Source: Omnitrophica bacterium RBG_13_46_9 (lineage in GTDB: Bacteria; Omnitrophota; Gorgyraeia; JABMRN01; RBG-13-46-9). From it: a stretch of DNA of 32,935 nt. The notes under the pieces were generated by a model. That model saw only the letters and a list, made by a program, of their open reading frames with translations, had not been told where the DNA came from and did no database searches. Of the stretch, positions 1,656 through 23,740 are shown in pieces; the stretch's first letter is position 1; the number at the start of each line of letters is the position of its first letter. The translations under genes and the position numbers were made by a program. The DNA is taken from contig MHFD01000076.1 in NCBI GenBank assembly GCA_001804045.1, positions 10,136 to 43,070 of the forward strand. Direction: 5' to 3'.

Positions 1656-3050
1656 ATGAACACTGATAAGGGTAAAATAATTATATTGGGGGCCGGGATT
1701 ACCGGCCTGGTCCTGGCCGAGCGGCTCTCCAGGACGCTTAAGGAGAGGGTAGTAGTGGTCGAAAAGGAAAATTTTTTGGGCGGCCTTGCATCCACCCTTT
1801 CCGACGAAGACCTGTCATTTGATTTGGGTTCCCATAGAATACACAGCGATTTTCCTCCGGAACTCATCGCATATCTCGAGAAGACTATCGGCGTAAAACT
1901 GATAAAAAGATCCAGAAGAGGCGCGTTATACTACAACGGAAAATACCTGCGGTATCCCCCTAATGTATTTAATTTCCTGAAAGTGCTCTCATTCAGAAAC
2001 ACCTTAAGACTCGCCGTCAGCTATCTAAAGAGATTCGACTATTCTCACCGCGACGCGGTAAACTACCAGGAGGCCATGATAAGGGCCGTGGGGAAGAAAA
2101 TATATGTGGCGTTCTACAAGAATTTCGCGCGTAAACTCTGGGGCGTGGACCCAAAAAGGATGTCGATTGACGGGATGAGAAGAAGAAATACCTTTTTGAA
2201 CCTCCAGTCAATAACAAAAAGCGTATGCGGCAAAGACAGGTATTTTTTCTATCCGATACATGGAATAGGCGATATAGCAAAGAAGCTGGAAAGCTCCATC
2301 CTTGAGAATAACGGAAAGATCATAAAAGGCGCGAAGATAAACGGGTTTTCATTAGACAGCGGCAGGGTGACAAGGATCATAATAGAAGGCCTTGACGGCG
2401 CTAAGGACGAGATAGAGAGCTCTATAGTCGCTTCGACCGTTCCCATAGATTCGCTTTTCGGGATCCTTTACGGGCACCACACACCGGCAAGCGGGCTTAC
2501 ATGGAGGGGGTTGAGGATATTGTATATACATATGCGTGAACTTTTGGAAGCCCGGAATGAAACTTTTTACTTTCCCAGGTTAGATATAAAATTCGGCAGG
2601 GTCTCTGATATAGGTAAATTCTCCCCTTACATCAACGCTTTCGCAGGCGGGACCTTATTGACGGTTGAGGTGCCCTGTACGCCGGGAGATAGGCTTTGGG
2701 ACGCGGATGATAAAGAGCTGTTGGACATATGCGTAAGGGACCTGATTAAAACGGGTGTCCTTACGGGTTATCCCGATGTCTCAAAATATTTTTCCATACA
2801 CCTGGAAAAGGCGTATCCTGTATTCGAAATAGGTTGGAGGGAGAAATTTATCGGCATGCATAGCCAGCTGGACAAGATTTTGAATCTTTTCACCATCGGC
2901 AGGAAAGGCTTATTCTTGCATTGCAATATAGACCACTGCATAATCCAGGGATTGGAATTGGCGGATTTTATCCTGCAGGATAAATGGCGCGATAAAGATC
3001 TGTGGAATAAAAAAATGTCGAGGTTCCTGCAATTCTGCGCAAGGGATTAA
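1656..3050 (+). CDS. FAD/NAD(P)-binding oxidoreductase (amine-oxidase / protoporphyrinogen-oxidase-like fold)
   Basis: A Rossmann dinucleotide motif, KIIILGAGITGLVLAE...VVVVEKENFLGGLA, lies right after the ATG at 1656. The TTG at 1566 given by the track adds 30 non-conserved-looking residues, so the ATG at 1656 is preferred. Confidence 0.7.
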   Translation: MNTDKGKIIILGAGITGLVLAERLSRTLKERVVVVEKENFLGGLASTLSDEDLSFDLGSHRIHSDFPPELIAYLEKTIGVKLIKRSRRGALYYNGKYLRYPPNVFNFLKVLSFRNTLRLAVSYLKRFDYSHRDAVNYQEAMIRAVGKKIYVAFYKNFARKLWGVDPKRMSIDGMRRRNTFLNLQSITKSVCGKDRYFFYPIHGIGDIAKKLESSILENNGKIIKGAKINGFSLDSGRVTRIIIEGLDGAKDEIESSIVASTVPIDSLFGILYGHHTPASGLTWRGLRILYIHMRELLEARNETFYFPRLDIKFGRVSDIGKFSPYINAFAGGTLLTVEVPCTPGDRLWDADDKELLDICVRDLIKTGVLTGYPDVSKYFSIHLEKAYPVFEIGWREKFIGMHSQLDKILNLFTIGRKGLFLHCNIDHCIIQGLELADFILQDKWRDKDLWNKKMSRFLQFCARD

Positions 3051-3188
3051 GAGAGCCTAAATGCTTTGCCGGTTTCCCGAGGGGGCATACGGATTTGCTT
3101 CGCTTTTACACGGATTGACGCCGATAAGACGCGGATACCGTGAATAATCTATGTAAAAATAATCGAAATCTTCAAATATAGGAAACCC

Positions 3189-4535
3189 GTGTCTATAGAT
3201 TTTAAAATAAAAGATTTCGCATATCCCGCAGAGATTTTAAAGCTCAGGTCTTTTCTGGAAAAAAGCCAGTGGTTCACGCGGGAGAGGCTGGAATACTATC
3301 AGCTCAAAAGGCTGCGGTTGATGTTAAGCCATGCCTATAAGAACGTCCCGTACTATTCGGAGCTATTCGCCAGATTAAAACTCACCCCATCTGATTTCAG
3401 AAGCATCGAGGACCTGAAGAAGGTCCCGCCGCTTGCCAAAAAAGACTTAAAAGAGAACTTTCATAAGCTGGTGGCAAAAAACGCGAAAAGGTTTAACCCC
3501 ATCCTCTGCAGGACCTCCGGTACCTCGGGACACCCCATAGAGTTCTACCTGGATAAGAATTCCAATATCCTTGAATTCTGCTATTATTGGAGATGCTGGT
3601 CCTGGGCGGGTTACAGACTGGGGATGTCTTTCATGGAATTCTCGTTTCATCATTTTCTGAATACAAGCATAAAAGAAGTCGCCTGCCATTCGTTATTGAC
3701 CAACAGATTGATCATCAATCCCGCGCAAATCTCATGTGAAAGTATCGATAAAATCGTCGGAAACATAAAAAGATATAAGCCCATGTTCGTAAAAGGCACG
3801 CCTTCGGCTATTTACATATTCTCGGTCCTTTTGGAAAAGAAAGGTTGCATGGGGGGCCTACCTTTCAAAGGCGTCTTCACCACCGGGGAGCTGGTCCTTC
3901 CTTATCAAAAAGAAAGAATAGAGAAGGTTCTAAATTGCAAGATACTGGACTCTTATGGGCACATGGAAAGAGCTATAGCTGTCTCTCAATGCCCGCAAGG
4001 GACATATCACATAAACTCCGAATATGGCATTTTGGAAGTAGAGACGGGCGAGAAGCCATCATCCGATAAGGGGATAACCGGTCAGATCATAGGGACTTCC
4101 CTACATAATTTTGCAATGCCGCTTATAAGATATAAAATCGGGGATCTGATAGAACTCGACAGGCGCCATGATAACAGGTGTGTGTGCGGAAGGGGCCTGC
4201 CTGCTATTAAAAAAATATACGGGAGGACCCAGGACGTCATCGTGACTAAAGAAGGGAGATTTATAACGAATATATTCCCTTTTTTCGATCTTTGGAAAAA
4301 CATCCTGTGGTTCCAGCTTGTCCAGGAAGATATCGATAAATTTAAACTAATGCTTGTCAAAGATTCGGGTTTCGAGGATAAAGGCATCGACGAACAGTTA
4401 TACACGCTAAAAAGCATATTGGGTAAGGACGCGAAAATCGAGCTGCGATTTTTTAAATTGGACGAGATAAATATCGAAGGCGGCAATAAGTATAGGCCTA
4501 TTGTCTCGCGGGTAGACGTTGCCAAATTTATATGA
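3189..4535 (+). CDS. CapK / phenylacetate-CoA-ligase-like adenylate-forming enzyme
   Basis: 448-aa ORF with a GTG start. It carries the AMP-binding loop TSGTSGHPIEFY and a later YGHMERA-type core. Its stop overlaps the next start (ATGA at 4532-4535). Confidence 0.7.
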   Translation: MSIDFKIKDFAYPAEILKLRSFLEKSQWFTRERLEYYQLKRLRLMLSHAYKNVPYYSELFARLKLTPSDFRSIEDLKKVPPLAKKDLKENFHKLVAKNAKRFNPILCRTSGTSGHPIEFYLDKNSNILEFCYYWRCWSWAGYRLGMSFMEFSFHHFLNTSIKEVACHSLLTNRLIINPAQISCESIDKIVGNIKRYKPMFVKGTPSAIYIFSVLLEKKGCMGGLPFKGVFTTGELVLPYQKERIEKVLNCKILDSYGHMERAIAVSQCPQGTYHINSEYGILEVETGEKPSSDKGITGQIIGTSLHNFAMPLIRYKIGDLIELDRRHDNRCVCGRGLPAIKKIYGRTQDVIVTKEGRFITNIFPFFDLWKNILWFQLVQEDIDKFKLMLVKDSGFEDKGIDEQLYTLKSILGKDAKIELRFFKLDEINIEGGNKYRPIVSRVDVAKFI

Positions 4536-5581
4536 AACCTCCGGTAGATATTCATAAAACGCCGGATCTTTTGCGAAGATTTGAGCCTCCCGTGCTTATC
4601 GTAAGCACGGTTGTGGGCAGGGGCATGCACAGCATAGGTGAGGCGGTCAGGGAAAGATTTCCGGAAAAATACAAGGTCTGCCATATCCCTATCGAAGAGT
4701 TTTTGCCCGAAAACGCGGTAAACGAAGATCTGAAAAGATATAAAATAATCTCTGACAAATTCACCGCGCTTCTATATCTCATTTATAGTGTCCCTTTTTT
4801 CTATTACAGGAAATATTTAAGGGAAAAATTTTTAAACAGGGCCTCTTTAAAAAGACTAAAAGCGAAGATAGAAGCGTTAAATGCGAAGACGGTCATCTGT
4901 ATAAGCCACCGTCCGGCATTCTGGGTTTCGAGCCTAAAAAGAAAAGAAAAGATGAGATTCAATCTCTGGGGGGTCCTGGGGGAATACGGAAGAAGTCTGG
5001 GATGGAAATATATATTCTGGGAAGAGGTCGATGGTTTTTTGTCTTCTGTGGATAGGCACGAGCTTGATTTTGATTTCCCGCCCCGCTTAGAGTTTATCAA
5101 AACAGATCTTCCTGTCAGACAGAAATTCTATGATGTCTCGGAAACAAAACCCGATAGGAACTCTGTCCTGCTAGTCTGCGGTTTTTGGGGTCAGGGCCCT
5201 TTATATGAGACGGCAAGATCGTTATTACAGAAACTGCCTCAACTTAACATCTATATCATCTGCGGGGAAAACAAAAAACAATACTATAGGCTCAAGGCGT
5301 ATTTTAAAGACAATCCAAATATAAAGGTCTATGCTACCGTGGAAACCCTGGCCCCCTTCATGAAAGAGTGCGCCAGCATAATCACCAAGCCCGGTATCTC
5401 TACGATTTTAGAAGCCTCTGCGGCGCAAAGAAAGATATTCCTGTTGAAAGGCATGCCTGTCGCCGAAGACAACAACGCCAGATACGCGATAGGCAATCTC
5501 AGCGCCGAGTGGTTTGAAATAGAACGCTTTAAAAACTGGTGCATTGACTCCCGGGAAACCGCGGGGTCATGCAAACAATAA
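4532..5581 (+). CDS. GT28-like glycosyltransferase (MGDG-synthase/MurG-type)
   Basis: The N-terminal loop VLIVSTVVGRGMHSIGEAVRE and the C-terminal segment KECASIITKPGISTILEASAAQRKIFLLKGMPVAEDNNARY resemble MGDG-synthase N-terminal and Glyco_tran_28_C regions. The gene is translationally coupled on both sides. Confidence 0.6.
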   Translation: MKPPVDIHKTPDLLRRFEPPVLIVSTVVGRGMHSIGEAVRERFPEKYKVCHIPIEEFLPENAVNEDLKRYKIISDKFTALLYLIYSVPFFYYRKYLREKFLNRASLKRLKAKIEALNAKTVICISHRPAFWVSSLKRKEKMRFNLWGVLGEYGRSLGWKYIFWEEVDGFLSSVDRHELDFDFPPRLEFIKTDLPVRQKFYDVSETKPDRNSVLLVCGFWGQGPLYETARSLLQKLPQLNIYIICGENKKQYYRLKAYFKDNPNIKVYATVETLAPFMKECASIITKPGISTILEASAAQRKIFLLKGMPVAEDNNARYAIGNLSAEWFEIERFKNWCIDSRETAGSCKQ

Positions 5582-6753
5582 ATCCCATGCCTATCCCTTT
5601 AAAATTGTCGGTTTTAAGACTTGTTTATGCCCACCCTCTTTATGCGCGGCATCTTATTGAAAAAAAATTCAGGTTTCGCCGGCGCTTCAGGCGAATAGCA
5701 AAATGTCCGGACAAAGACAACGCTGTCTTGCCGCCTTTAGTGTATAAATTTATCCTGACGTTAAGATGCAACCTGAACTGCAGGATGTGTATGCTCTGGG
5801 GCGAACGCGGCTGGTGTAAAAAAGAACCGCGGGATACGACCTCCGGGGAGCTGGATTGGGACATCGTCAAGCGCATCGTCAGCCAGAGCGGTCATTACCG
5901 CCCTTCTTACATCCTTTCGGGCGGCGAACCGTTGCTCTATTCTCATTTTGAAGATCTGGCGGAATCGTTGGGGAAAACAAGGTCTTTTGCCTATATCTGC
6001 ACAAACGGGCTTTTGCTGGACAGATTTAAAGACACTATCTCCAAAAACCCTTATCTTACTTTTCTGGTATCCCTGGACGGGTTACGGGACGAAAATGACT
6101 CTTTGAGGGGAAAAGGCGTCTACGATAAGGTAGTGGAAAACATAAGTCTTTTAAAGGCCATTAAGAGGCCCCCGTATATAGGGATACAGTTCACGATATA
6201 CCCTGACAATGTGGCTATAATGTATGATTTCTGCAGGGAAATGGCAAGGTTAAAAATCGACTGGATCCTCCTGAACCCATGCTGGTTCATATCAGAGACG
6301 CAGGCAAAGGAATACGAAAGCGTCATGGTGAATGATTTCGGAGTACGGCCCAAAACGCATTCGGGGTACCTGTCCGTTCCCGATTTTGATAAAGAAGAAT
6401 TCGTGAAACAACTCCGGAAAATCAGAGACCGGAGTTGGCCAATGCAGGTCTCGTGTTATCTGAAAGAGCCGGAACATGTTTACACATATGCCGACACCCC
6501 CGAGGTGCCCCCGGGAAACGGGTTTTGTTACAAACAGTGGCTCAGGCTGGATATCGCGCCTGACGGGGAGGTATGTCCCTGCATACAATTTCCGGATCTG
6601 AAGTTCGGCAATTTAAAAGAAAAAAGCGCCTTAGAAATATGGAATTCCCCTTCCTACGAGAGATTCAGGAAAATACTAAGAAAAAGGTGTCTTCCTGTTT
6701 GCAGCAAGTGTGACTGCCTCTATTTATACGACGCCGGCAGAAAATATCTTTGA
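5569..6753 (+). CDS. radical SAM enzyme with C-terminal SPASM domain
   Basis: CxxxCxxC cluster motif LRCNLNCRMCMLWG. C-terminal Cys-rich SPASM pattern: FCYKQW...DGEVCPCIQFPDLKFGNLKEKSALEIW...RCLPVCSKCDC. Overlaps the upstream gene by 13 nt. Confidence 0.85.
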   Translation: MQTINPMPIPLKLSVLRLVYAHPLYARHLIEKKFRFRRRFRRIAKCPDKDNAVLPPLVYKFILTLRCNLNCRMCMLWGERGWCKKEPRDTTSGELDWDIVKRIVSQSGHYRPSYILSGGEPLLYSHFEDLAESLGKTRSFAYICTNGLLLDRFKDTISKNPYLTFLVSLDGLRDENDSLRGKGVYDKVVENISLLKAIKRPPYIGIQFTIYPDNVAIMYDFCREMARLKIDWILLNPCWFISETQAKEYESVMVNDFGVRPKTHSGYLSVPDFDKEEFVKQLRKIRDRSWPMQVSCYLKEPEHVYTYADTPEVPPGNGFCYKQWLRLDIAPDGEVCPCIQFPDLKFGNLKEKSALEIWNSPSYERFRKILRKRCLPVCSKCDCLYLYDAGRKYL

Positions 6754-6786
6754 CGCAAGGGGTTCTTAAATATTTCGGGACTTCCT

Positions 6787-8052
6787 ATGAAGATACTTAT
6801 ATTCTCTTATTACCTGCCTCACAACGACATAGACCAATATACCTTAAGGATACACTTAAAAACGCTCTCTCAGGATAATGAAATAATTTTGGTCTGCGGG
6901 GTGCGGAAGGGAGAAGAAGGCCTGTTAGAGGATACCCGCAAATATTGCGCGAAAGTCTATGCCGTAAAACTGGACCTGCCCAATCTTTCCTGGAGATTAA
7001 AAGACATTTCCGCGGCATTTCTCCTAAGGGGAACGATGAACTGTCTCCGATTTTTGCCTCCCGCCAAGCTCCCCTGGGATAGGTTGCTGATCATGCCTCT
7101 TTTTTTCTTTTTCAGAAAAGAACTGTCCGACAGATTAAAAGAGGCTTTCCAGAGGGAAAAGCCGGATCTGGTCCATTTTCACAAGATAATAACCTCCGCC
7201 CACAGAGAAGACATCCCCCGTCATGTGCCATCGGTCTTTTTTGACGACGACGCAATAAGCAGACTATTCTACGCCAGCATGATCGCTGAAAAATCCTTTC
7301 CGGCCAAGGCGTATTATCTTATAAGATATCTGGGAGCCAAAAAGTGGGAGAAGCTGATACTGCCTTCGTTTAAAAAAGTGGTCATTTTATCGGAAAACGA
7401 CAGAAAATGGCTAACGGGCATCAACCCTTTCCTCTCTAATGTGGAGCCGATACACTATGTGGTGGATACGGAGCTCTTTAAGCCTGCGCCTGTCACGGAA
7501 GATTTTCCTTCGGTAATATTTTTTGGAACGCTTTCTCTTTCCTACAATAGAGAAGCCGCGGAATATTTCGCAGGCGCCATCCTCCCGCTTATCAGAAAGG
7601 AAATCCCGCAATTGAGATTTTACATCGTCGGCCCGGACCCTTCCTTAAAAATAAGAAGCCTGTCCAAAAATCCTTTAAACAAGGTGGTCAGCAAAGTAAC
7701 GGGTCATGCGGAGGACCTTCGCGGCCATATAGCAAAATCCGCTGTCTGCATAGTCCCCCTTAATAAAACCGTAGGCGTTAAATCCAGAATATTGATCGCC
7801 ATGAGCATGGCTAAAACCGTGGTCGCGACAAGCGCGGCCGCGCAAGGGGTGGAGGGTTTAAAAGACGGGGAAAATATAATTATCGCCGATACGCCTTCCC
7901 TATTTGCTGAAAAAGTGGTGTATTTAATAAGAAACCGCGAGGTGAATAACGGGATCGGAGTTAAGGCCCGTGAGCTGATAATCAGGGAATACTGTAGCCG
8001 CAGGTGGAAGGAGCAATGGGAAACCATATACAGGAGTCTTATAAAAACCTAG
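6787..8052 (+). CDS. GT4-family (GT-B) glycosyltransferase
   Basis: 421-aa ORF. The C-terminal half (FFGTLSLSYNREAA, KSRILIAMSMAKTVVATSAAAQGVEGLKDGENIIIADTP) matches the usual GT4 nucleotide-sugar-binding region. Confidence 0.7.
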   Translation: MKILIFSYYLPHNDIDQYTLRIHLKTLSQDNEIILVCGVRKGEEGLLEDTRKYCAKVYAVKLDLPNLSWRLKDISAAFLLRGTMNCLRFLPPAKLPWDRLLIMPLFFFFRKELSDRLKEAFQREKPDLVHFHKIITSAHREDIPRHVPSVFFDDDAISRLFYASMIAEKSFPAKAYYLIRYLGAKKWEKLILPSFKKVVILSENDRKWLTGINPFLSNVEPIHYVVDTELFKPAPVTEDFPSVIFFGTLSLSYNREAAEYFAGAILPLIRKEIPQLRFYIVGPDPSLKIRSLSKNPLNKVVSKVTGHAEDLRGHIAKSAVCIVPLNKTVGVKSRILIAMSMAKTVVATSAAAQGVEGLKDGENIIIADTPSLFAEKVVYLIRNREVNNGIGVKARELIIREYCSRRWKEQWETIYRSLIKT

Positions 8053-8816
8053 GCATCAAGATCGGGCCTATGGTTATGCGCGCTTTAGGATATCTTCCGA
8101 TTACGGAATCCAGTGATGACGACGTATTTATAGTTTCCTATCCGAGGAGCGGAAACAGCTGGCTAGCCCACCTTATCCTGGGTATCTTTTATGACGAAAA
8201 TCCCGAGACTATCCGCTATTCCGCGGTCCGCAACATGATCCCGGATGTGCATCTAAAACGTTGCTACAGGCGTTGCCATAGCCCGATGTTCTTTAAATCA
8301 CACCATCTTCCAAGGCCGGAATATAAACGTGTCTTGTATATTGCGAGAGACGGCCGGGATGTAATGGTGTCATGCTATCATTATTATTCGGCATCTCTCG
8401 GTAAAGATATCGATTTCATGGAGATGATCCGGGGGAAGGGCCTGGATTTCGGCAAATGGCATGACCATGTCGAATCCTGGCTATCAAACCCCTATAAAGC
8501 AAAGATGCTTCTTGTCAAATACGAAGACATGGTGAAAGACACGGTCGGTGAATTAAAAAGACTTTGCATTTTTTTCGGGATAAAAAAGGATATTTCGGTC
8601 CTTGAAACCGCTGCAGAGCGGGCTTCATTCGAAAAGTTACGGCAAAAAGAAATAAAGCACGGCATTGATTACAGGGGTTGGCCGCGGGATAAGATGTTTT
8701 TCCGCAGAGGCAAAGTCGGAAGCTATAAAGATGAGATGCCATGGGACGCGTTGGAGGCGTTTACAGGCGAGGCCGAGGGCACTCTACGAAAACTGGGTTA
8801 TTTATGCGGCGATTGA
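8016..8816 (+). CDS. PAPS-dependent sulfotransferase (Sulfotransfer_1 type)
   Basis: 5'-PSB loop YPRSGNSWLAHL, 3'-PB motif ARDGRDVMVSCYHY, and C-terminal FRRGKVGSYKDEM (the RKGxxGDWKN equivalent). The start is uncertain. The ATG at 8016 follows GGAAGGAG. Alternatives are GTG at 8004 and ATG at 8070. Confidence 0.8.
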   Translation: MGNHIQESYKNLGIKIGPMVMRALGYLPITESSDDDVFIVSYPRSGNSWLAHLILGIFYDENPETIRYSAVRNMIPDVHLKRCYRRCHSPMFFKSHHLPRPEYKRVLYIARDGRDVMVSCYHYYSASLGKDIDFMEMIRGKGLDFGKWHDHVESWLSNPYKAKMLLVKYEDMVKDTVGELKRLCIFFGIKKDISVLETAAERASFEKLRQKEIKHGIDYRGWPRDKMFFRRGKVGSYKDEMPWDALEAFTGEAEGTLRKLGYLCGD

Positions 8817-9865
8817 TCGATAGAACCATATCAAGATTTAGCGCCATTTCCCCGACCGGAAGGGCGGTTTTTCGGAAATCGGGTAAAATGAACGAATTTC
8901 TGGAGAAAAAACCTCTGATGTTAAAACTGGAGACAACTAATATATGTGACGCCCGATGTAATTTTTGCGCATATAAAAAGATGAGGCGCCCCGGACAGAT
9001 AATGTCTCTTGAGCTTTTTGAAAAGACAGCCCGTGATTATGCCGTGATGGGCGGGGGTGCGGTCACGCTGACCCCCTGCGCGGGAGAGCTATTGACAGAC
9101 CCTCATCTCATAGAACGTCTCAGGATATTGACATCATACAAAGAAATCGGGAACATCGGCTTTACCACTAACCTTATAGGGCACATGAGGTTTTCTGACC
9201 GGCAATGGATTGAAATTTTACGCTCCACTTACTATTTACAGGTAAGCTCAGGCGGATTGGACCGCAATACATATCTTAGGATGTTCGGTGTCGATAAAGC
9301 GAAAGATGTGCTTGAAGGCATAGAAAGAATTTTTTTATTGAAGAAAAAGTCCGGCGCTAAAACGATTATCTCGCTTGCATTCAGAACCGATAAGCGGAAC
9401 TATCTAAAGCTTAAACGGAAGGGGCTTTTGGTATTTAATAAAAACGGTGTCTACATATCAAACATAGCGACTTACGGCAATTGGGCAGGCATGCTTGATA
9501 CGAAAGATAAAAAGGGGGCGATCAAAATATCGGAAAGAAGACCCGCAATCCGCTCCGGCCCGTGCGCGGTAATGGCGACAATGATAGGCGTCCTCTCCTC
9601 GGGGACCGTTACGGCGTGCTCCTGCTGTGATTTTGACGGGGCCCTCTTCCCGCTAGGAAACATCGCGGAAAAAGGTTTAGCGGATTTATACGCCGGTTCT
9701 GGCCGAAATGTTCTATTTGAAAAATCGTCAGGCGCCAAAGAACATCTATGTTTTAATTGCTCGCATTACATCGGGTTGGGCTGGATGATACACCGGGGGG
9801 CTCTTGACTTAAAAAACCCTGGTAACATCCCCCTCAAGTTTTACCATTTTTTCAGCGGCGGATGA
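8804..9865 (+). CDS. radical SAM enzyme with Cys-rich (SPASM/twitch-like) C-terminus
   Basis: CxxxCxxC motif TTNICDARCNFCAYKK. C-terminal cysteines: GPCAVM...TACSCCDFDG...HLCFNCSHY. The start is either ATG at 8804 (13-nt overlap with the upstream gene) or ATG at 8888. The track start at 8741 is unlikely. Confidence 0.8.
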   Translation: MRRLIDRTISRFSAISPTGRAVFRKSGKMNEFLEKKPLMLKLETTNICDARCNFCAYKKMRRPGQIMSLELFEKTARDYAVMGGGAVTLTPCAGELLTDPHLIERLRILTSYKEIGNIGFTTNLIGHMRFSDRQWIEILRSTYYLQVSSGGLDRNTYLRMFGVDKAKDVLEGIERIFLLKKKSGAKTIISLAFRTDKRNYLKLKRKGLLVFNKNGVYISNIATYGNWAGMLDTKDKKGAIKISERRPAIRSGPCAVMATMIGVLSSGTVTACSCCDFDGALFPLGNIAEKGLADLYAGSGRNVLFEKSSGAKEHLCFNCSHYIGLGWMIHRGALDLKNPGNIPLKFYHFFSGG

Positions 9866-9912
9866 TGTCGGGAATGGGCACATGAAAACATAATTTTTCG
9901 GAGTCAAATTAA

Positions 9913-11253
9913 ATGAATAACGGAAAGCTTTTGATTTTGAGTCTTGATGGCGCTTCCTGGGAAGGGTTAAAACCTTTTCAGGAACAAGGGAAATTGCCTA
10001 TAATAAGCTCATTGGTGAGTTCCGGCATGTCAGGGCCGCTTTCTTCTATGCTACCGACCTTCACATACCCCAATTGGGGGAGTTTCTGGACAGGACAAAA
10101 CCCCGGCCGACACGGGATATTCGCATTTAAAGAGCTGCGGTCGAGAGGAAGGTTGCACCAACTCGTGGGATGGAACTCACTTAAACTGCCGACCTGGCCC
10201 GAACTAGCGCATAGTCGAGGCTTCAAGATGGTTTCGGTATACGCCCCCCTTACCTACCCTCCGGCAAAACTTAACGGTCTTATCGTAGCGGACCAGCACA
10301 TGAGAAATTCCCGTAATTTCACGCATCCTGCGAGATTGGCCGGAGAACTCCGCTCCAGGTTTGGGAGGGTGTGCCCGCCTAAATCCGAGCAATTTTTCCC
10401 CCCTGGCGGTTTTCGGGACTCAGAATCCATGCGTGAATTTGTCCAAAAGCAAATTCAGAGCGTACTTCAGACCGGGGCAATAGCAGAGTATCTCCTTAAG
10501 AAACCTTCATGGGATATATGCATGGTTCATTTTTTCGCGACGGATCCCCTGCAGCACGCCCTCTGGCATCTTATGGACTCCGGACATCCAGCTTTTAGCG
10601 CAGAGGGACATCAGGAAATAGCGAAGTTCTTTGAGGCGCTGGATACGGCTATCGGGCGATTGATAGAGGAGGTAAAGCCGGGCATGGTCACGTTATTTTC
10701 TGTGCATGGGTTTACAGCTACCCGCGGTATCCTAAATCTATCCCGTTGTCTATTCGATTCTCTCGATAGAAAACCAAGAGGTGTTTTTCTTGATTGTAAA
10801 GCGATATATGTATACAATAAAATACGGGAAAACGGCGCGATTACAGATATTCTTATTCAAGCCCTGCAAAGCTTAAAGGACCCTTCTTCCGGGTCCCATG
10901 TAATACGCAGGGCCTGGCTGGCAAAGGAGTTGTACGGTTTTGTATCGTTCCCGGAGTGGGATGTAATAGTTTTGGAATTCAACGAAGGTTATACCGGCCG
11001 TGACGGTGATTTGAGGGCTCCTCTTTTCAAGATGTGCCGGCCAAATCGGGATTATTTGATCGGTACCCATACCCGGAAAGGTCTCTGGTTATTCTGCGGC
11101 AAGGGAGTACCTGCCCGCGGCGGTCTTCAAACCGGCATTTTAGACCTTCCTCCCACGATTCTAAACTATCTTGGGGTAACTGTCCCGGAATACATGGAAG
11201 GAAGCCCGCTTCCGCTCTTTACTTCTGTTATGTCAGGGCAAAAGACAGAATAA
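9913..11253 (+). CDS. alkaline-phosphatase-superfamily enzyme, nucleotide pyrophosphatase/phosphodiesterase (NPP) type
   Basis: Metal-ligand motif LILSLDGASWEGL. Thr-nucleophile motif PTFTYPNWGSFWTGQNPGRHGI. Later His motifs LFSVHGF and LIGTHTRKG. Confidence 0.75.
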   Translation: MNNGKLLILSLDGASWEGLKPFQEQGKLPIISSLVSSGMSGPLSSMLPTFTYPNWGSFWTGQNPGRHGIFAFKELRSRGRLHQLVGWNSLKLPTWPELAHSRGFKMVSVYAPLTYPPAKLNGLIVADQHMRNSRNFTHPARLAGELRSRFGRVCPPKSEQFFPPGGFRDSESMREFVQKQIQSVLQTGAIAEYLLKKPSWDICMVHFFATDPLQHALWHLMDSGHPAFSAEGHQEIAKFFEALDTAIGRLIEEVKPGMVTLFSVHGFTATRGILNLSRCLFDSLDRKPRGVFLDCKAIYVYNKIRENGAITDILIQALQSLKDPSSGSHVIRRAWLAKELYGFVSFPEWDVIVLEFNEGYTGRDGDLRAPLFKMCRPNRDYLIGTHTRKGLWLFCGKGVPARGGLQTGILDLPPTILNYLGVTVPEYMEGSPLPLFTSVMSGQKTE

Positions 11254-11255
11254 AA

Positions 11256-13463
11256 ATGAAAATCGGACAAAAAGGCGAAAATCTTATCTTCCTTATTTCC
11301 CAGCCGCGGTCGGGCTCAACCATGCTCCAGCGGATCCTGGGAAACCACCATGATATATATACAGTATCAGAGCCATGGCTTATGGTCCCTCCGCTTGTAG
11401 GGCTGACATGTAGATGGTCCAGCCCCGAAGGGAGAGAGGCCCGTTTTGCGCGTGAAAATGTGCGCCGTTTCCTTGAGACATTTCCAGGCGGGCGCGATGA
11501 CTACTTTGAAGGCTTGCGACGCATGTATGTATACCTGTATAACCGTGCCCTTGAAAACTCGGGTAAGCGTTATTTCCTCGATAAAACACCGAGATACGCT
11601 TATTTCATACCCGAACTTTACAGGGTCTTTCCGGAAGCGCGCTACATATTCCTGCTGCGTAATCCGCTGGCAGTTCTATGCTCAATCGTCACAAACTGGA
11701 CGGGTTACGATAAGCGGACGCTTTCGACGGATCACAATGACGACCTGGTAGACGTCCCGCGTCTATTGCTTGAGGGTATGAATATCCTGGATTCAAAAGC
11801 CATAAAAGTCCACTATGAGCGCCTGGTATCCCAGCCGGATGCAGAGATAAGGAGAATCTGTGAAAATATAGGCGTGGGGTTTTACCCGGAAATAATCGAA
11901 TATAACGCGTACGGCCTTCCTCAATGGTGCTTTGGAGACCAATTTGTGTATAAACATACAGCCCCTGATGCGCGGAAATCCGAAAGCTGGAAAGCAGCCG
12001 TCAGAGACCCGCGGATGTGGGGATTCGCCTACAGTTACCTTGGATCTCTGGGTAAAGACCTTGTCGAACACCTCGGGTACTCTTACCGGGAACTGCATGG
12101 AGTCCTTCAGAACTCCCGGCCACATTGGCTCGTGAGAGGGCTGGCAGCTTTAGTGCAATGGCCACGTATACGGTCTTTATACGGTGCCGTAAAATCCGTC
12201 ATTAGAAAGATATCGTCTTTCTTTACCTTATCCTTCATCGCAGTGTTCTTTATGGAACCGTTTTTTTGGTTTCTGGGCCTGCGAGGGAAAAATAGAGACG
12301 TCGGTGCGGGCAGCGCTAAGCGCATATTGGTGGTGCGTCTGGATTCGATCGGAGACTTGGTACTGACAACCCCTTTCCTGAGAGAACTCCGCCGGAATTC
12401 GCCCGGCTCATTTATCACTCTTATAGTCGACCCGCGCGCTTTAAACCTGGTTGATATCTGCCCTTATGTAGATGAGGTGCTGACATACGACTGGAGAGCG
12501 CGGGGCTCCTTTAAAAAATTGAAAAAGTGTTTCCGGGCCGTGAATTTCTCTGCCTTCAACCTCTGGGAAAAAAGATTTGACCTGGCAATAACGCCTCGTT
12601 GGGGAACCGATTATTATCACGGGTCTTTTCTGGCGTATATTAGCGGAGCCAGGGATAGAATCGGCTATTCCGAATATACGAGCGCCGATAAACGCAGGTT
12701 AAACAGGGGGTATGATAATTTTATTACACATTTAATTACGGATGGTCCGCATGAAGCCACTCGGTTTTGCGGCGTTTCCGATTGTGGGGTTCCGTTCCGC
12801 GAAGCCCCGCAATACCGCTGGCACACGGTCAAACATGAGGTAGTACGCAATTTAGACGTGATAAAATTTTTGGGGCGGGAGCCCTCCGGTGACGATCTGG
12901 AATTATGGATAGAAGATTCCGATAAGGTCTTTGCCGGAGAGATCCTAAGGAAATATGAAGTAAAGTCCGGCGAGGCATTGGTCTGTTTCGGCGTGGGGTC
13001 CCAGGAGCCAAAAAAGATATGGCCCATCGGGTATTTTGCCGATTTGGGTGCCTGGCTCATAAAAGAATACGGCGTGCGTATATTGCTTTTGGGGAACGAG
13101 CAGGAAAAGCCGTTGGGAGAAAGGATGGAAAAAGATTTAAAAGAAGGCCCTGTCATCAATATGATAGGAAATACCACCTTACGCCGGGCAGCCGCTTTGA
13201 TAAAACACTGTAAGGCTTACATAGGCAATGACAACGGCTTAATGCACATATCGGCCGCCATGGGAATACCTGTGGTAGAGGCGTCCTGCTGGCCAAAATC
13301 AGGCTCGCTATTTGGCGAGGATAGTCCCTGCCGTTTCGGGCCATGGAAAGTCAAGAATATTGTCGTCAGCTCTCAAAAAATAGCCGGTTCCAAAGACAAT
13401 GGCATATCGCGGGTGACGGTCGAAGAGATGAAAAAGGCGGTAAGGGAGATATTGTCGAGCTGA
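11256..13463 (+). CDS. fusion protein: N-terminal sulfotransferase domain, predicted TM segment, C-terminal GT9 (heptosyltransferase-family) domain
   Basis: The ATG at 11256 lies 2 nt after the upstream stop. The track start at 11034 would overlap the upstream gene by 220 nt. N-terminal PAPS loop FLISQPRSGSTMLQRILGN plus LLRNPLAVLCS. Hydrophobic FFTLSFIAVFFMEPFFWFLGL (about 12210-12282). GT9 signatures ILVVRLDSIGDLVLTTPFLRELR and YIGNDNGLMHISAAMGIPVV. Confidence 0.8.
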   Translation: MKIGQKGENLIFLISQPRSGSTMLQRILGNHHDIYTVSEPWLMVPPLVGLTCRWSSPEGREARFARENVRRFLETFPGGRDDYFEGLRRMYVYLYNRALENSGKRYFLDKTPRYAYFIPELYRVFPEARYIFLLRNPLAVLCSIVTNWTGYDKRTLSTDHNDDLVDVPRLLLEGMNILDSKAIKVHYERLVSQPDAEIRRICENIGVGFYPEIIEYNAYGLPQWCFGDQFVYKHTAPDARKSESWKAAVRDPRMWGFAYSYLGSLGKDLVEHLGYSYRELHGVLQNSRPHWLVRGLAALVQWPRIRSLYGAVKSVIRKISSFFTLSFIAVFFMEPFFWFLGLRGKNRDVGAGSAKRILVVRLDSIGDLVLTTPFLRELRRNSPGSFITLIVDPRALNLVDICPYVDEVLTYDWRARGSFKKLKKCFRAVNFSAFNLWEKRFDLAITPRWGTDYYHGSFLAYISGARDRIGYSEYTSADKRRLNRGYDNFITHLITDGPHEATRFCGVSDCGVPFREAPQYRWHTVKHEVVRNLDVIKFLGREPSGDDLELWIEDSDKVFAGEILRKYEVKSGEALVCFGVGSQEPKKIWPIGYFADLGAWLIKEYGVRILLLGNEQEKPLGERMEKDLKEGPVINMIGNTTLRRAAALIKHCKAYIGNDNGLMHISAAMGIPVVEASCWPKSGSLFGEDSPCRFGPWKVKNIVVSSQKIAGSKDNGISRVTVEEMKKAVREILSS

Positions 13464-13724: not shown

Positions 13725-13759
13725 AAAAAGCCTCCTACTTAAAAAGCAGGAGGCTTTTT
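13725..13759. terminator. bidirectional rho-independent terminator-like hairpin
   Basis: aaaaAGCCTCCT-acttaaaaagc-AGGAGGCTtttt. An 8-bp GC-rich stem is flanked by an A-run on the left and a T-run on the right. It lies just downstream of the minus-strand Fic C-terminal ORF. Confidence 0.55.
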
Positions 13760-13798: not shown

Positions 13799-14215
13799 TT
13801 ATTTATTACGCAATTTCTCAATTGCTTTTCCTGTCGGAAGAAACAATAGTAGCCGCTTGCCCTCTTTCTCTATTTCAAAAAACCCCTTTATGGCAAGAGC
13901 TATTAAATCCTTACGAGCAGTATCATATGCAATACCGTGAGTATTTTTATGGGCTTCTATTGTATAAATATTATCTGGATGTTGAATAGAGTGATAGATT
14001 AAACTCTTTTGTCGTAAATTTAATCCACGAAACTTATCTAATAGTTCGTTTGCTTTTGATATTTCCCTCTGTTTGTTTTTTAAATATTTTCTCAATTCAT
14101 TCAAAGCAAACCTAATAGCAAGTAAATTGTGAAGCTCCACCGCCTTACAGCGGTGGCTTCTCTTTTTACAGGGTTCCGCTCTATCGGTGGAGCGGAACCC
14201 TGAACCGAAAGCCAT
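13799..14215 (-). pseudogene. Fic-family protein, C-terminal (winged-helix-like) fragment; its first 29 codons are encoded by the inserted element
   Basis: From NLLAIRFALNELRKYL onward it reads as the continuation of the upstream Fic ORF. It is in the same frame as 14249-15277, separated by 33 nt. The ATG and the MAFGSGFRSTDRAEPCKKRSHRCKAVELH leader lie inside the 126-nt element. Confidence 0.7.
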
Positions 14216-14254
14216 TCATCCGCGCCCTTACAGGCGTGGCTTTCTGGTTCATGG
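14129..14254 (-). mobile_element. 126-nt non-autonomous IS200/IS605-like element (PATE/MITE), copy 1, inserted in the Fic gene
   Basis: The reverse complement equals 26779-26904 at 118 of 126 positions; only the 8-nt central loop differs. The left flank on the element strand is TTAC. It has two direct subterminal hairpins with tgtaag loops plus a 13-bp perfect central palindrome. Confidence 0.8.
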
Positions 14255-15277
14255 GTAAACTAGAAAATAAGTCAGATCATTCTCATCATATTCAGTATAA
14301 AGATATCCTCTTACATATTGGCCAGGGGCTCTAAGAAAATGTTTTGAAATAGATAAATATTGAAAAAGTTCATAACCACGGCTCAGGAGATACCAATACA
14401 TCAATGCTCTGGCCGTTCTCCCATTCCCGTCGGTAAAGGGATGATCATACGCTAACCAAAAATGGATCATCGCTCCTTTAATGATGGAATGAATCCAATT
14501 TTCTTCGTCATCTTGATTTACAAACTCAATCAGTTTATTCATCCTGTCCTTTAGCGTATCTGCTTTAGGTGGGATATGCACAGTTTCATCTCTGTATGTA
14601 ACAACAATGTCATCCCTATCCCTAAATTTTCCTGCCTCACTAGGAGATTTCAATGTATCTTGCGTCAAAATAGTATGCAGTTCATAGAGTTTATCTGCAG
14701 AAAAGGGTGTTTTAATATTTTCTCGAATGAATTGCATTGCATGCCAATTGTTAAATATCATCTGCTCATTTTTGTCTTTGGGTTTACGCCCAGACCGTAA
14801 CATTTCTTTTGCAATCCTATACTCTGTTAAGGCCCCTTCTAGCTGGCTAGATGCAATGGCTTCGTCCATTAAAGAGCTTATAATATATTTCTCTTTGGCT
14901 GGAAGGCTAAATGGGTGGTCAGTAATTATTTGTCCCCCAGACCATTTATCAACATCACTTATGCCGCGATGCAGACAATCTGGTATCCAATACGTAAAGG
15001 GTCGATTGTTTTTGTCCATTATAGGTGTAGTTTTCCTGTTTGCGGAACGCCCTAATTTTAAATACGCCCATATTTCTTCAGCCTTGATTTCTATATTATT
15101 CGCTGGCATGCGATGAATAACATCCGACCAATAAAAGTATCGATCGCTGGCTTTGCGTATCAGATTCTGCAGTTCTGGTATTTGACCAATTTTTAGAATC
15201 TTTAAAAAACTTTCCGGGTTACCAAATATACTATTCAGATTTGGAGGTGATTCAACGAGCAAGAAAAAACCTCTCAC
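14249..15277 (-). pseudogene. Fic-family protein (AMPylase-type), N-terminal plus catalytic part, terminated by a stop inside the inserted element
   Basis: Fic motif HPFTDGNGRTAR (14408-14443). Inhibitory-helix-type motif SSQLEG (14834-14851). The ORF ends ...DLTYFLVY-P-stop, with the P codon and TGA contributed by the element. The GTG start at 15277 lies inside a terminator hairpin, so the true start is uncertain. Confidence 0.8.
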
Positions 15278-15298: not shown

Positions 15299-15310
15299 AC
15301 AACGAGTTAG

Positions 15311-15385
15311 CAGCCCCACGGGGATTCGAACCCCGGTCTTCAGAATGAAAATCTGATGTCCTAGGCCGGGCTAGACGATGGGGCC
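15311..15385 (-). tRNA. tRNA-Glu (anticodon UUC), no encoded CCA
   Basis: The minus strand reads GGCCCCA TC GTCT AGCCCGGCCTA GGAC A TCAGA TTTTCAT TCTGA AGAC CGGGG TTCGAAT CCCCG TGGGGCT G. This gives a full cloverleaf with anticodon loop TT-TTC-AT. The D-arm and T-arm closely resemble E. coli tRNA-Glu. Positions 1-72 form a G-U pair. Confidence 0.88.
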
Positions 15386-22183: not shown

Positions 22184-22348
22184 CCCCTTATTCTACTTCG
22201 ACTAATAGATATTAATCTTAAAGACAGTAATAATAGTAATAGGGTTAAAAAATGTTGATATTTACATAATATCCATAAAACAAAAGAGTTAGAATAAAAA
22301 ACTTATACACACCTTATCAACATATCCACAGCCACCATTACCACACCA
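22184..22348. promoter_or_regulatory. candidate oriC module (AT-rich unwinding region plus DnaA-box-like 9-mers) in the dnaA-dnaN spacer
   Basis: Very AT-rich stretch at 22200-22300. It is followed by TTATACACA (22303-22311), TTATCAACA (22314-22322) and ATATCCACA (22322-22330). Each is one mismatch from TTATCCACA. Confidence 0.5.
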
Positions 22349-23740
22349 TTAAGAACCACTCTTTATGCTTAAAACCAGTTTATCTATAACCCAACCCATC
22401 TTTTCATCCTTTTTTAAGTCATTTTCAATCTTCTCACAGGCATGAAGGACTGTTGTATGGTCCCTCCCGCCGAAAAAACGCCCTATCTCAGGCAGGGAAA
22501 GATCTGTAAGGTCCCTACTTAAGTACATGGCTATCTGGCGCGGATAAGCCACCGCTTTTGTCCTTTTTTTTATCTTCATGTCTTGCAGATTGATATTAAA
22601 ATATTGAGCCACTTTTTTTTGTATCAGATCGACCCCGACTCTTTTCTCGCCCTCAATAATCATCTCTTTTAATACCTCTTTGGCGAGGTCTATAGTTATG
22701 TCTTTGTTCATCAATTTTGCGTAAGCGACTACGCGTATAAGCGCACCCTCCAGCTCCCTTATATTTGTTTTAACTTTTTCGGCCAACAAGAAAAAGAAAT
22801 CATCGGGCAGGTGTATGGTTTCCGCCTCACATTTCTTTCTTAAAATCGCTATTCTTGTTTCAAAATCGGGCGGCTGGATATCCGTAATCAAACCCCACTC
22901 AAACCTGGATATCAACCTCTCCTCTAAAGTAGGGATTTCTTTGGGCGAACGGTCGCTTGACAGCACTATCTGTTTATGGGCGTCGTACAAAGAATTGAAT
23001 GTATGGAAAAACTCTTCCTGCGTGGCTTCCTTGCCCGCTATGAAATGGATATCATCTATTAAGATCATATCCACAGTGCGGTACTTCTGTCGGAATTTTT
23101 GCGTAGCCCTGTTCTGAATCGCGGATATCAATTGATTTGTGAACTCTTCGCTGGATATATATAATATCTTTGCTCTAGTGTTATTTTTTGCCAGCTCATT
23201 TCCCATCGCGTGCATGAGGTGGGTCTTGCCTAATCCGACACCCCCATATATGAAAAGCGGGTTATACGCTTTGGCGGGGGATTCCGCGATAGCCAATGAG
23301 GCGGCGTGGGCAAATCTGTTGCTCGGGCCCACCACGAAACTGTCAAATGTATATTTTGGATTTAGACCCGTATCTTTTAAAAAAACATCCTCGGCTTGCT
23401 TGGGAAAGACAGACCTGAACCACCCCTTCTTCTGTGTTGGTTTTTTTTCGGATTCCTTTTGGGGCGCCACTTCTTTGACGGCCGAAATAGAGAATTCTAT
23501 ATTTATCTTCTTGTTGGCGATTTCACTCAGGTAGGAACCTAATAGGTTTGAGTATCTTTCTCTGACCCACTCTTTAAAAAATTCATTGGGAACTCCAAGC
23601 GTAAGCGTATCATCCGAAAGAGATACGGGTATTATCGGCGCAAACCATGCATTAAATACCTGCTCACTGACCTCGCTTTTTATGCAGTTCAGGAGGTTGT
23701 CCCACAATTCTTTATGAACATTTTCCACAGGGTTATCCAC
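22349..23740 (-). CDS. dnaA: chromosomal replication initiator DnaA
   Basis: 463 aa. AAA+ Walker A GGVGLGKTHLMHA, Walker B ILIDDIHF, sensor and box VII regions. C-terminal DNA-binding helix GGRDHTTVLHACEKI. The start is GTG at 23740 (alternative GTG at 23728). Confidence 0.96.
   Translation of the reverse strand: MDNPVENVHKELWDNLLNCIKSEVSEQVFNAWFAPIIPVSLSDDTLTLGVPNEFFKEWVRERYSNLLGSYLSEIANKKINIEFSISAVKEVAPQKESEKKPTQKKGWFRSVFPKQAEDVFLKDTGLNPKYTFDSFVVGPSNRFAHAASLAIAESPAKAYNPLFIYGGVGLGKTHLMHAMGNELAKNNTRAKILYISSEEFTNQLISAIQNRATQKFRQKYRTVDMILIDDIHFIAGKEATQEEFFHTFNSLYDAHKQIVLSSDRSPKEIPTLEERLISRFEWGLITDIQPPDFETRIAILRKKCEAETIHLPDDFFFLLAEKVKTNIRELEGALIRVVAYAKLMNKDITIDLAKEVLKEMIIEGEKRVGVDLIQKKVAQYFNINLQDMKIKKRTKAVAYPRQIAMYLSRDLTDLSLPEIGRFFGGRDHTTVLHACEKIENDLKKDEKMGWVIDKLVLSIKSGS

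Follow-up and report, generated by a model that had tools for sequence, protein, structure and literature searches.

A mosaic operon with two radical SAM/SPASM enzymes and two sulfotransferases in an Omnitrophota genome, possibly for a sulfated surface glycan

What might a bacterium build with two sulfotransferases, two radical S-adenosylmethionine (SAM) enzymes, three glycosyltransferase (GT) domains, an adenylate-forming ligase and an enzyme of the nucleotide pyrophosphatase/phosphodiesterase (NPP) family, and do the genes for them belong to one pathway? The question is posed by a nine-gene operon in a 32,935-nt stretch of Omnitrophica bacterium RBG_13_46_9 (contig MHFD01000076.1), a metagenome-assembled genome (MAG) at ~9x coverage. 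We call the whole stretch the window and number operon positions within it. Surface-glycan gene clusters are a well-known and very diverse kind of locus; to our knowledge radical SAM enzymes are hardly known in bacterial surface polysaccharide assembly, and sulfated bacterial envelope glycans are rare. Omnitrophota are mostly uncultured and often ultra-small or host-associated, and their surface glycan probably matters for cell–cell contact.

A preliminary description of the locus had proposed an envelope-glycoconjugate operon in a combination that it did not recognise, and our analysis supports both points. The two sulfotransferases, two radical SAM enzymes, three GT domains, CapK-like ligase and NPP enzyme are all present, and every one of its domain calls is borne out by Pfam, NCBIfam and PDB searches; its headline inventory left out the first gene (1656–3050), a flavoenzyme resembling UDP-galactopyranose mutase (UGM). 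No characterised locus with this combination was found in the genomes of 185,579 species, in Joint Genome Institute (JGI) metagenomes or in the literature, of which coverage was incomplete. The literature yielded no described pathway for the combination or for either of its parts, and partial precedents only, namely lipid-modifying radical SAM enzymes and VpsH. Treating the nine genes as a single combination needed revision: they form one operon, and not one evolutionary unit. The operon is pieced together from two independently distributed cassettes, here called modules A and B, and two further genes, GT4 and ST1. On balance we favour the view that its enzymes work on the cytoplasmic side of the membrane, where they build up and modify a lipid-linked surface glycan, and that the product is sulfated; the glycan would be either an O-antigen/capsule-type polysaccharide or a lipo-oligosaccharide.

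Two cassettes in one operon

The nine open reading frames (ORFs) all lie on the + strand, tightly packed between 1656 and 13463, and their coordinates agree with the junctions described earlier. The third gene overlaps the end of the second through an ATGA (4532–4535), and the fourth starts 13 nt before the third ends (5569–5581). The fifth gene ends at 8052 and the sixth starts at 8016, an overlap of 37 nt (an alternative GTG start lies at 8004); the sixth and seventh share 13 nt (8804–8816), and 2 nt (11254–11255) separate the last two. The single spacer above 100 nt follows the first gene (3051–3188, 138 nt), and a terminator scan of the operon found no internal terminator or long spacer past 3188. 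The starts at 1656, 5569, 8804 and 11256 fit the lengths of homologues or deposited proteins.

Module A consists of the UGM-like flavoenzyme (1656–3050), a CapK/PaaK-like adenylate-forming enzyme (3189–4535), a GT-B glycosyltransferase with a GT28-like donor domain (4532–5581) and the radical SAM enzyme rSAM1 (5569–6753). An alignment of rSAM1 proteins, scanned against one genome per species (185,579 species), gave 33 loci. Carriers are found in Acidobacteriota (Pyrinomonadaceae, Terriglobia and Holophagales), several Planctomycetota including the cultured Saltatorellus ferox Poly30, seven Omnitrophota, Thermodesulfobacteriota, Fibrobacter, Chitinispirillaceae, Myxococcales and two archaeal MAGs. 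Co-occurrence was assessed in 34 related loci by tblastn and ORF clustering with a crude ORF caller (90-aa minimum), the neighbourhoods being a sample rather than an exhaustive set. Exactly four window genes recur together, and they are the four of module A. Of the 34 loci, 26 contain the full quartet, whose median span is 5.3 kb; the exceptions are mostly truncated contigs. Taken singly, the flavoenzyme occurs in 27 loci, the CapK-like enzyme in 29 and the GT28-like enzyme in 30 (at 41–65% identity); the last is adjacent to rSAM1 on the same strand in 24. Identity across phyla is 41–66% for the module as a whole. Module A is a self-contained cassette exchanged between phyla, and neither the genomes of the 185,579 species nor the literature covered held a characterised example. 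Since it is carried by Saltatorellus ferox Poly30, a cultured and sequenced planctomycete, its product is open to genetics and mass spectrometry.

The genes around the quartet vary and are of glycan type. They include class-I methyltransferases (9 loci), short-chain dehydrogenases/reductases (SDR; 6 loci), PMT_2/ArnT-like GT-C membrane proteins (7 loci), and GT4, GT2, B12-dependent radical SAM and MiaB-like radical SAM genes, and 19 loci hold at least two radical SAM genes. Three Omnitrophota loci (L017, L029 and one entered as both L006 and L014) are unusually rich in radical SAM genes, with five to six each; among these are paralogues of rSAM1 and B12-binding types, and L017 also has a MiaB-like (UPF0004) type, which suggests extensive radical tailoring of one scaffold. 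Module A genes at 43–51% identity also lie on two archaeal-binned contigs (L021, an Altiarchaeota MAG, and L026, an uncultured archaeon MAG), as a result of either cross-domain transfer or mis-binning. In two Omnitrophota-type loci, L004 (6565–8019) and L015 (a 427-aa ORF), the place of an enzyme dependent on 3′-phosphoadenosine 5′-phosphosulfate (PAPS) is taken by a PAPS-independent arylsulfotransferase, an Arylsulfotran_2 protein; the module A product may thus be sulfated there too, by a different enzyme class. Apparent fusions of the GT28-like enzyme with rSAM1 in the high-GC loci L024, L027 and L030 were rejected, as each is two genes in different frames.

Module B consists of the radical SAM enzyme rSAM2 (8804–9865), the NPP enzyme (9913–11253) and a fusion of a Sulfotransfer_3 domain to a GT9 glycosyltransferase (11256–13463), and it is a rare cassette. 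Its recurrence is limited to two short contigs. One (L040) repeats the order rSAM2, NPP, sulfotransferase–GT9 at 58, 61 and 63/46% identity; its rSAM2 carries an extra N-terminal domain and lies downstream of an NDP-sugar epimerase gene. The other (L043, fusion protein P0002) carries the C-terminus of the NPP enzyme, followed by the same fusion, which was found nowhere else. A word-indexed search of 5.8e9 clusters returned eight relatives of rSAM2, an exhaustive HMMER search two representatives at the orthologue level, and the rSAM2 alignment, scanned against metagenomes, no more than two contigs, both short and uninformative (L044 and L045).

The two modules do not meet elsewhere among the loci fetched. 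ST1, rSAM2, the NPP enzyme and the sulfotransferase domain of the fusion have no homologue in the 34 module A loci, and the GT9 domain finds one 20%-identical match there, in the single Omnitrophota locus entered as L006 and L014. In L040, L041 and L043, which carry module B, it is module A that is missing. In gene neighbourhoods the fusion gene and the two radical SAM genes divide between two units that recur separately, not together. Here the modules are bridged by GT4 (6787–8052) and ST1 (8016–8816). Among the 34 loci GT4 is shared only with L004, the nearest relative of our module A (67% identity), which has the PAPS-independent arylsulfotransferase in place of ST1; ST1 is unique to this operon among the loci fetched. 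The overlaps of 37 nt between GT4 and ST1 and of 13 nt between ST1 and rSAM2 imply that the junction between the modules is translationally coupled.

Predicted activities and families of the enzymes

The flavoenzyme is a FAD enzyme (Pfam NAD_binding_8 and Amino_oxidase) related over its full length to eukaryote-type UGM. A profile of 18 family members aligns residues 6–446 with 10–457 of Trypanosoma cruzi UGM (4dsg, E=1.3e-46) and reaches only 83 bits with protoporphyrinogen oxidase. Most key residues are kept: the flavin-contacting His loop, the YFP Tyr (Y305), the diphosphate-binding Arg (R315), the second Tyr (Y387) and N-x-DH. As in the pairing of UGM (Glf) with a furanosyltransferase, the flavoenzyme is always linked to a glycosyltransferase. 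It departs from UGM in one substrate-binding Tyr that is His, in the flap Arg, which is Lys or variable, and in GGH, which is GSH; the Pfam GLF match is weak and below threshold, and the NCBIfam model for UGM (TIGR00031) gives 74 bits against a cut-off of 304. It may act as an oxidase, or as a mutase on a different sugar.

The product of 3189–4535 is assigned by its sequence to the PaaK/CapK branch of the adenylate-forming (ANL) superfamily. Its translation contains TSGTSG, YGHME and GD...GR, the intact core motifs for ATP/AMP binding, and it matches PaaK in the PDB (4r1l, E=1.1e-23); the NCBIfam scores of 95 bits for PaaK (cut-off 646) and 112 bits for the DVU_1553 family are both below cut-off. 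In Vibrio cholerae, the PaaK/CapK-like VpsH is required for the attachment of glycine, through an amide bond, to the uronic acid N-acetylgulosaminuronic acid (GulNAcA) on a bactoprenyl-linked disaccharide (PMC13463779). Compared by description, VpsH is likewise a PaaK-like enzyme within a glycan locus and gives the CapK-like ligase a concrete role. By this analogy it would be a closer precedent than the acylation guessed at in the preliminary description; the VPS locus differs in having neither a UGM-like flavoenzyme nor a radical SAM partner.

The GT-B enzyme of module A (Pfam Glyco_tran_28_C, 23.7 bits) combines a donor domain like those of UgtP, MGD1 and MurG, all of which use lipid acceptors, with a divergent acceptor domain. 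Its family profile matches the processive diacylglycerol glucosyltransferase 9wde (E=1.4e-17) over residues 204–318 only, in the C-terminal half, and PDB sequence and profile searches detected no relative of the N-terminal acceptor domain. The earlier label of a monogalactosyldiacylglycerol (MGDG)-synthase-like enzyme is apt for the donor domain and not as a full-length match. Identity with the MGDG synthase or UgtP equivalog was rejected, as the likeness is confined to the C-terminal domain and NF010135 gives 62 bits against a cut-off of 500.

Both rSAM1 and rSAM2 exceed the Pfam cut-offs for Radical_SAM and SPASM, which identifies them at the sequence level as radical SAM/SPASM-twitch enzymes. 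The invariant cysteines of rSAM1 are C67, C71 and C74 (CX3CX2C) and, in its SPASM/twitch C-terminal domain, C320, C338, C378 and C381. In its AlphaFold2 (AF2) model (predicted local distance difference test score, pLDDT, of 88) the radical SAM core begins near residue 58, too early for an N-terminal peptide-recognition element to fit in front of it. Foldseek matches include SuiB and SkfB (top by E-value), BlsE (template modelling (TM) scores 0.62/0.74), DesII and the anaerobic sulfatase-maturating enzyme (anSME), and the model is as similar to the sugar-acting BlsE and DesII as to the peptide maturases; BtrN, another radical SAM enzyme with a sugar substrate, matches the C-terminal cluster domain. 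Relatives of rSAM1 number more than 200 clusters at E<=1e-10, with 46–66% identity among the 120 listed. Identification as an anSME was rejected (52 bits against a cut-off of 349). A GT acting with a radical SAM enzyme to remodel lipid head groups is known from HpnI/HpnJ, which make the bacteriohopanetetrol cyclitol ether, and a radical SAM enzyme of this kind from the calditol synthase Cds (PMC13459092). The adjacency of GT and radical SAM genes in 24 loci resembles these systems; orthology with them or with BlsE and DesII is absent, as the HpnH model gives 77 bits against 225, HpnJ is a B12-binding enzyme and the TM scores are ~0.6.

Of the two genes between the modules, GT4 encodes an accessory GT-B glycosyltransferase (Pfam Glyco_trans_1_4, 70.6 bits; NCBIfam TIGR03087, 144 bits against a cut-off of 317), and ST1 a PAPS-dependent sulfotransferase of the cytosolic SULT type (Pfam Sulfotransfer_1, 126.8 bits). 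ST1 aligns with SULT 5x2b (E=1.7e-23) over the 5′-phosphosulfate-binding (5′-PSB) loop, the 3′-phosphate-binding (3′-PB) loop and RRGKVGSY, with SYPRSGNSW against SYPKSGTHW and IARDGRDVMVS against IVRNPKDTAVS. In the fusion protein of module B, the Sulfotransfer_3 domain (~1–290, 112 bits) is joined by a hydrophobic linker (315–342, nt 12198–12281) to the GT9 domain (~350–735, Glyco_transf_9, 75 bits), and the PAPS-binding motifs read SQPRSGSTM and LLRNPLAVLCS. Its PDB matches are the GT9 protein 3tov, the CurM sulfotransferase, tyrosylprotein sulfotransferase (TPST) and RfaF (1psw, E=2.6e-11). A loss of PAPS-binding residues was looked for in both sulfotransferases; judged by their alignments, both keep the 5′-PSB and 3′-PB loops, and both Pfam scores are above the cut-offs. 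Bacterial carbohydrate sulfotransferases such as rhizobial NodH, NoeE and LpsS and mycobacterial Stf0 are PAPS-dependent and sulfate envelope or secreted glycoconjugates. The NCBIfam model of NoeE matches the fusion at 86 bits against a cut-off of 500, with the PAPS loops intact in the fusion. The present case differs from these enzymes in the joining to GT9 and in the second, eukaryote-SULT-like sulfotransferase.

The NPP enzyme is a cytoplasmic member of the NPP/alkaline-phosphatase superfamily (Pfam Phosphodiest, 97.5 bits against a cut-off of 23). In a two-sequence profile that covers the N-terminal 70 residues only, D12, the Thr nucleophile T51 (PTFTYPNW) and N54 align with NPP1; searched alone, the protein matches no PDB sequence at E<=0.001. 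D211xxxH215 and H386 are present as judged by eye, in a part that has no PDB alignment. With rSAM2 next to it, the pair could be taken for an anaerobic sulfatase maturase and its sulfatase, and this was rejected because the protein has a Thr nucleophile (T-Y-P-N-W) and no (C/S)xPxR motif, CxPxR included. The removal of 3′-phosphoadenosine 5′-phosphate (PAP), which the preliminary description had suggested, is a conjectural role for the enzyme. Its counterpart in L040 is syntenic and 61% identical.

rSAM2 has the cluster motif CDARCNFC and conserved C-terminal cysteines; an AF2 model from a 7-sequence alignment (pLDDT 59) was judged unusable. Its wider family comprises 236 representatives at E<=1e-30, and in the 35 longest members a domain scan found that the fused domains are all glycan-related. 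They are Wzt_C (three proteins), ABC_tran (two), GT2 (four), GT1-like (four) and GT9 (two), besides Methyltransf_24/TylF, RMNT_CmcI, class-I methyltransferases and a rhamnosyltransferase. Both radical SAM enzymes of the operon belong to glycan-associated families, and two separate radical SAM/SPASM families are thereby tied to glycan machinery through conserved gene order and domain fusions. Three members of the rSAM2 family, among them P0279, carry a Wzt ATPase, the carbohydrate-binding Wzt_C and radical SAM/SPASM in one polypeptide, an architecture of which we know no description. Radical SAM/SPASM domains also occur in giant multidomain proteins: P0262 (2872 aa), P0261 (1977 aa) and P0266 (3352 aa). 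P0262 joins a methyltransferase, radical SAM/SPASM, TPR, GT9 and up to five GT2 domains, and P0261 a pair of radical SAM/SPASM domains with one methyltransferase and one GT2 domain; judged by their domains, these two resemble whole polysaccharide assembly lines into which a radical SAM module has been built.

Homologues of the GT9 domain run into the hundreds at 38–48% identity, the closest at 43–48%. They stand alone or are N-terminally fused to a methyltransferase, and fusion to a sulfotransferase is seen in only two others; stand-alone proteins of the clade have the hydrophobic linker of our fusion conserved at their N-termini. In four of the five distinct loci examined, wzm/wzt lie within a few genes of the GT9 homologue, and the wzt gene often has a Wzt_C domain. 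The parts of module B come from families linked to polysaccharide pathways of the Wzm/Wzt ABC-transporter type. In one neighbourhood of the clade (L046, 3356–7873 and 13289–16644) a gene for a bifunctional ATP-sulfurylase/adenosine 5′-phosphosulfate (APS)-kinase lies directly upstream of wzt, near a methyltransferase–GT9 gene, with two sulfatase genes downstream, an independent hint of sulfated glycans in such neighbourhoods.

A candidate pathway and its rivals

In the proposed pathway, the flavoenzyme would isomerise or oxidise a nucleotide sugar as the first step of module A, and the UgtP/MurG-like GT-B enzyme would then transfer the sugar to a lipid acceptor in the membrane. The CapK-like enzyme, if it acts as VpsH suggests, would activate a carboxylate with ATP to give an amide or ester, and rSAM1 would carry out a radical step on the sugar (oxidation, decarboxylation or epimerisation). 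In module B, the GT9 domain of the fusion would add a sugar that the fused sulfotransferase would sulfate, with a second sulfate contributed by ST1. The cofactors that these enzymes need, PAPS, SAM, ATP and NDP-sugars, are all cytoplasmic, and the nine proteins lack signal peptides and, except for the hydrophobic linker of the fusion, membrane-spanning segments.

More speculatively, the sugar and sulfate of module B may cap the non-reducing end of a chain, which is suggested by the exchange of methyltransferase for sulfotransferase in the GT9 clade together with the Wzt_C context. O-antigen and capsule loci of the ABC-transporter (Wzm/Wzt) type use chain-terminating caps, such as that made by WbdD in Escherichia coli O9a, and the C-terminal domain of Wzt reads the cap. 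The likeness lies in the GT9 homologues that adjoin wzm/wzt, often with Wzt_C, in the fusion of a modifying domain to a GT (a methyltransferase in the sister proteins) and in the rSAM2 relatives fused to Wzt. The differences are that the window has no wzm/wzt, that a sulfotransferase stands where the known systems have a kinase or methyltransferase, and that capping is putative here; we know of no counterpart to the radical SAM and NPP partners in characterised Wzm/Wzt capping systems. The parallel between the sulfotransferase–GT9 fusion and methyltransferase–GT9 in Wzm/Wzt loci suggests a new mode of glycan-chain capping. Three features seem new: module A as a conserved cassette, radical SAM/SPASM families dedicated to glycans, and the fusion of a sulfotransferase with GT9.

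A more ambitious proposal, which we hold only tentatively, is that modules A and B together encode two previously unrecognised radical-SAM-dependent glycan chemistries. Module A, spread horizontally over at least six bacterial phyla and some archaeal MAGs, would then make a new, radically remodelled lipid-carried sugar, for example a furanose or one derived from a uronamide. Module B would be a sulfate-capping terminator for ABC-transporter-exported glycans, the sulfotransferase–GT9 and methyltransferase–GT9 fusions would be interchangeable capping devices, and a dedicated radical SAM/SPASM family, elsewhere fused to Wzt, would share in the terminal modification.

Several observations weigh against a joint pathway to a surface glycan. 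Genes for wzm/wzt, a flippase, a polymerase, an initiating phosphoglycosyltransferase, PAPS synthesis and nucleotide-sugar pathways are absent from the window, which is part of a 50.8-kb contig, and the preliminary description was right about those it had listed (PAPS synthesis, flippase and polymerase). None of the nine proteins reaches an NCBIfam equivalog cut-off and neither cassette has a characterised member, so all reaction assignments derive from family membership. In the NPP enzyme the canonical SDHG with its metal-binding D–H dyad reads, by eye, SVHG (residues 263–265, 10701–10709), and SAHG in L040, and the enzyme may accordingly have an altered metal site or a non-hydrolytic role. 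ABC transporters are seldom present in module A loci elsewhere, so that module A may have another product (a glycolipid, for instance, or a polyprenyl-phosphate sugar that a GT-C enzyme would use), with the modules possibly acting on different molecules. A chimeric junction between them, from assembly of the MAG at its ~9x coverage, is possible.

The alternative that survives best is a membrane glycolipid, in which the GT28-like enzyme glycosylates diacylglycerol and the other enzymes extend, remodel and sulfate the head group to give a sulfated, perhaps acylated glycoglycerolipid. For module A this is plausible: the closest solved relatives of its GT-B enzyme are diacylglycerol glycosyltransferases (9wde and MGD1), GT and radical SAM pairs that remodel lipid sugar head groups exist in HpnI/HpnJ and calditol synthase (PMC13459092), the module is self-contained and has no export genes, and all operon enzymes are cytoplasmic. 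The likeness to UgtP and MGD1 is, however, limited to the donor-binding half, and the model for diglucosyl-diacylglycerol synthase is missed by far (62 bits against 500). MurG, whose acceptor is polyprenyl-linked, is related too, ArnT/PMT_2-type GT-C enzymes, which use polyprenyl-phosphate sugars, are encoded in seven of the module A loci, and the families of module B are tied to polysaccharide ABC-transporter loci. As an account of the whole operon we consider the glycolipid rather unlikely.

It is less likely still that the two modules are mere neighbours that act on different molecules, co-transcribed by an accident of gene order or assembly. Their separate distributions speak for it, as module A lacks module B in 34 of 34 related loci and module B lacks module A in L040, L041 and L043, and so does a slight shift in composition at the NPP and fusion genes, which have 49% G+C and the lowest tetranucleotide correlation in the window (r=0.80). 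That deviation stems from GC1 and GC2, i.e. from amino-acid content. Base composition had also led the preliminary description to hint at a different origin for the operon, and this is not supported. The operon has 46.7% G+C against 41.5% in the rest of the window, and the outliers are low-GC genes (yidC, parA, Fic and orf138). The G+C content at third codon positions (GC3) is 0.50–0.56 in operon genes, ~0.49 in gyrB and dnaA and 0.57 in gyrA; the earlier spot counts had put single lines of yidC and gyrA at roughly 30–40%, and gyrA as a whole has 47.3% G+C. The "46" in the name of the MAG is presumably, by the naming convention, the %GC of the bin, and the operon would then be typical of its genome. 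Against an accidental neighbourhood are the overlaps of 37 and 13 nt that couple the modules translationally, the continuity of the operon after 3188, with no internal terminator or long spacer, and the fact that stacking of such cassettes is typical of glycan loci.

The assembly of a sulfated surface glycan also has to be set against a role in the inner core of lipopolysaccharide (LPS), in which the GT9 domain would be a true ADP-heptose:LPS heptosyltransferase and the operon would decorate the lipid A core. The preliminary description had called this GT heptosyltransferase-like. In favour of the LPS-core reading are the Pfam score for Glyco_transf_9 (75 bits), the 76–81 bits with the NCBIfam models of heptosyltransferases I, II and III and the match to RfaF. 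The domain is not of the LPS-core type: all heptosyltransferase equivalog cut-offs (134–185 bits) are missed, genes for ADP-heptose and Kdo are absent from the window, and the closest GT9 homologues (43–48%) reside in Wzm/Wzt clusters and are often fused to methyltransferases. On these three grounds we regard the LPS-core reading as very improbable.

A pathway like that of the ribosomally synthesised and post-translationally modified peptides (RiPPs), with both radical SAM/SPASM enzymes, the GTs and the sulfotransferases modifying a ribosomal peptide or protein, could draw on the preference of SPASM enzymes for peptides, on SuiB and SkfB as the top matches of rSAM1 by E-value and on the distant likeness of the fusion's sulfotransferase domain to tyrosylprotein sulfotransferases, and can be dismissed, since no convincing precursor or credible small ORF was found in the 524-nt spacer upstream of the operon, in the 138-nt spacer or downstream, the rSAM1 core from about residue 58 has no space for a RiPP recognition element (RRE)/PqqD-like domain, no protease or peptide exporter accompanies the genes, the wider rSAM2 family is fused to glycan enzymes only, and the 34 module A loci share no conserved small gene (a limited test, among ORFs of at least 90 aa).

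Surroundings of the operon in the window

Upstream of the operon, a gene of the ROK family on the − strand (10–1131) encodes a regulator or kinase of NagC/Mlc type (Pfam ROK, 73 bits; NCBIfam NagC, 77 bits against a cut-off of 650). It is divergent from the operon, as described earlier, across an intergenic spacer of 524 nt (1132–1655; the earlier figure was 520), which presumably contains the promoter and regulatory sequences; scans for promoters and terminators gave match counts no higher than in shuffled sequence. The ROK gene has no match in any fetched locus and is not conserved beside either cassette elsewhere. Downstream, a bidirectional hairpin like an intrinsic terminator (13725–13759, AAAAA-GCCTCCT-loop-AGGAGGC-TTTTT) can be read directly from the sequence; its loop is 11 nt long, which is why the terminator scan did not list it. 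It separates the operon from two convergent genes on the − strand, a 138-aa ORF with no Pfam hit (orf138, 13799–14215) and a Fic-domain gene (14249–15277). These are the lowest-GC genes in the window (0.37–0.38, GC3 ~0.32) and lie between the operon and a tRNA-Glu(TTC) gene on the − strand (15310–15385). The pair may be a small mobile or toxin-like insertion; no att-like direct repeat of the tRNA gene that would bound an island was found in the region.

The remainder of the window is the replication-origin region of the chromosome. dnaA, dnaN, gyrB and gyrA lie on the − strand at 15.5–23.7 kb, and the rpmH/rnpA region, yidC, parA and parB on the + strand at 24.5–29 kb. DnaA-box matches (TTATCCACA, <=1 mismatch) number 20 in the window against 7.7 expected, and cluster at 22303–22330, in the dnaA–dnaN spacer, and at 23721–23796, just upstream of dnaA. 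The cumulative GC skew has its minimum at ~23.5–24 kb, and the region of these clusters and the minimum is probably oriC. At the right end, a Lys/Glu-rich open frame of 476 aa on the + strand (31.5–32.9 kb) runs off the window; with its KH/HD-like C-terminal part it looks like RNase Y, and its composition accounts for the strong purine skew there.

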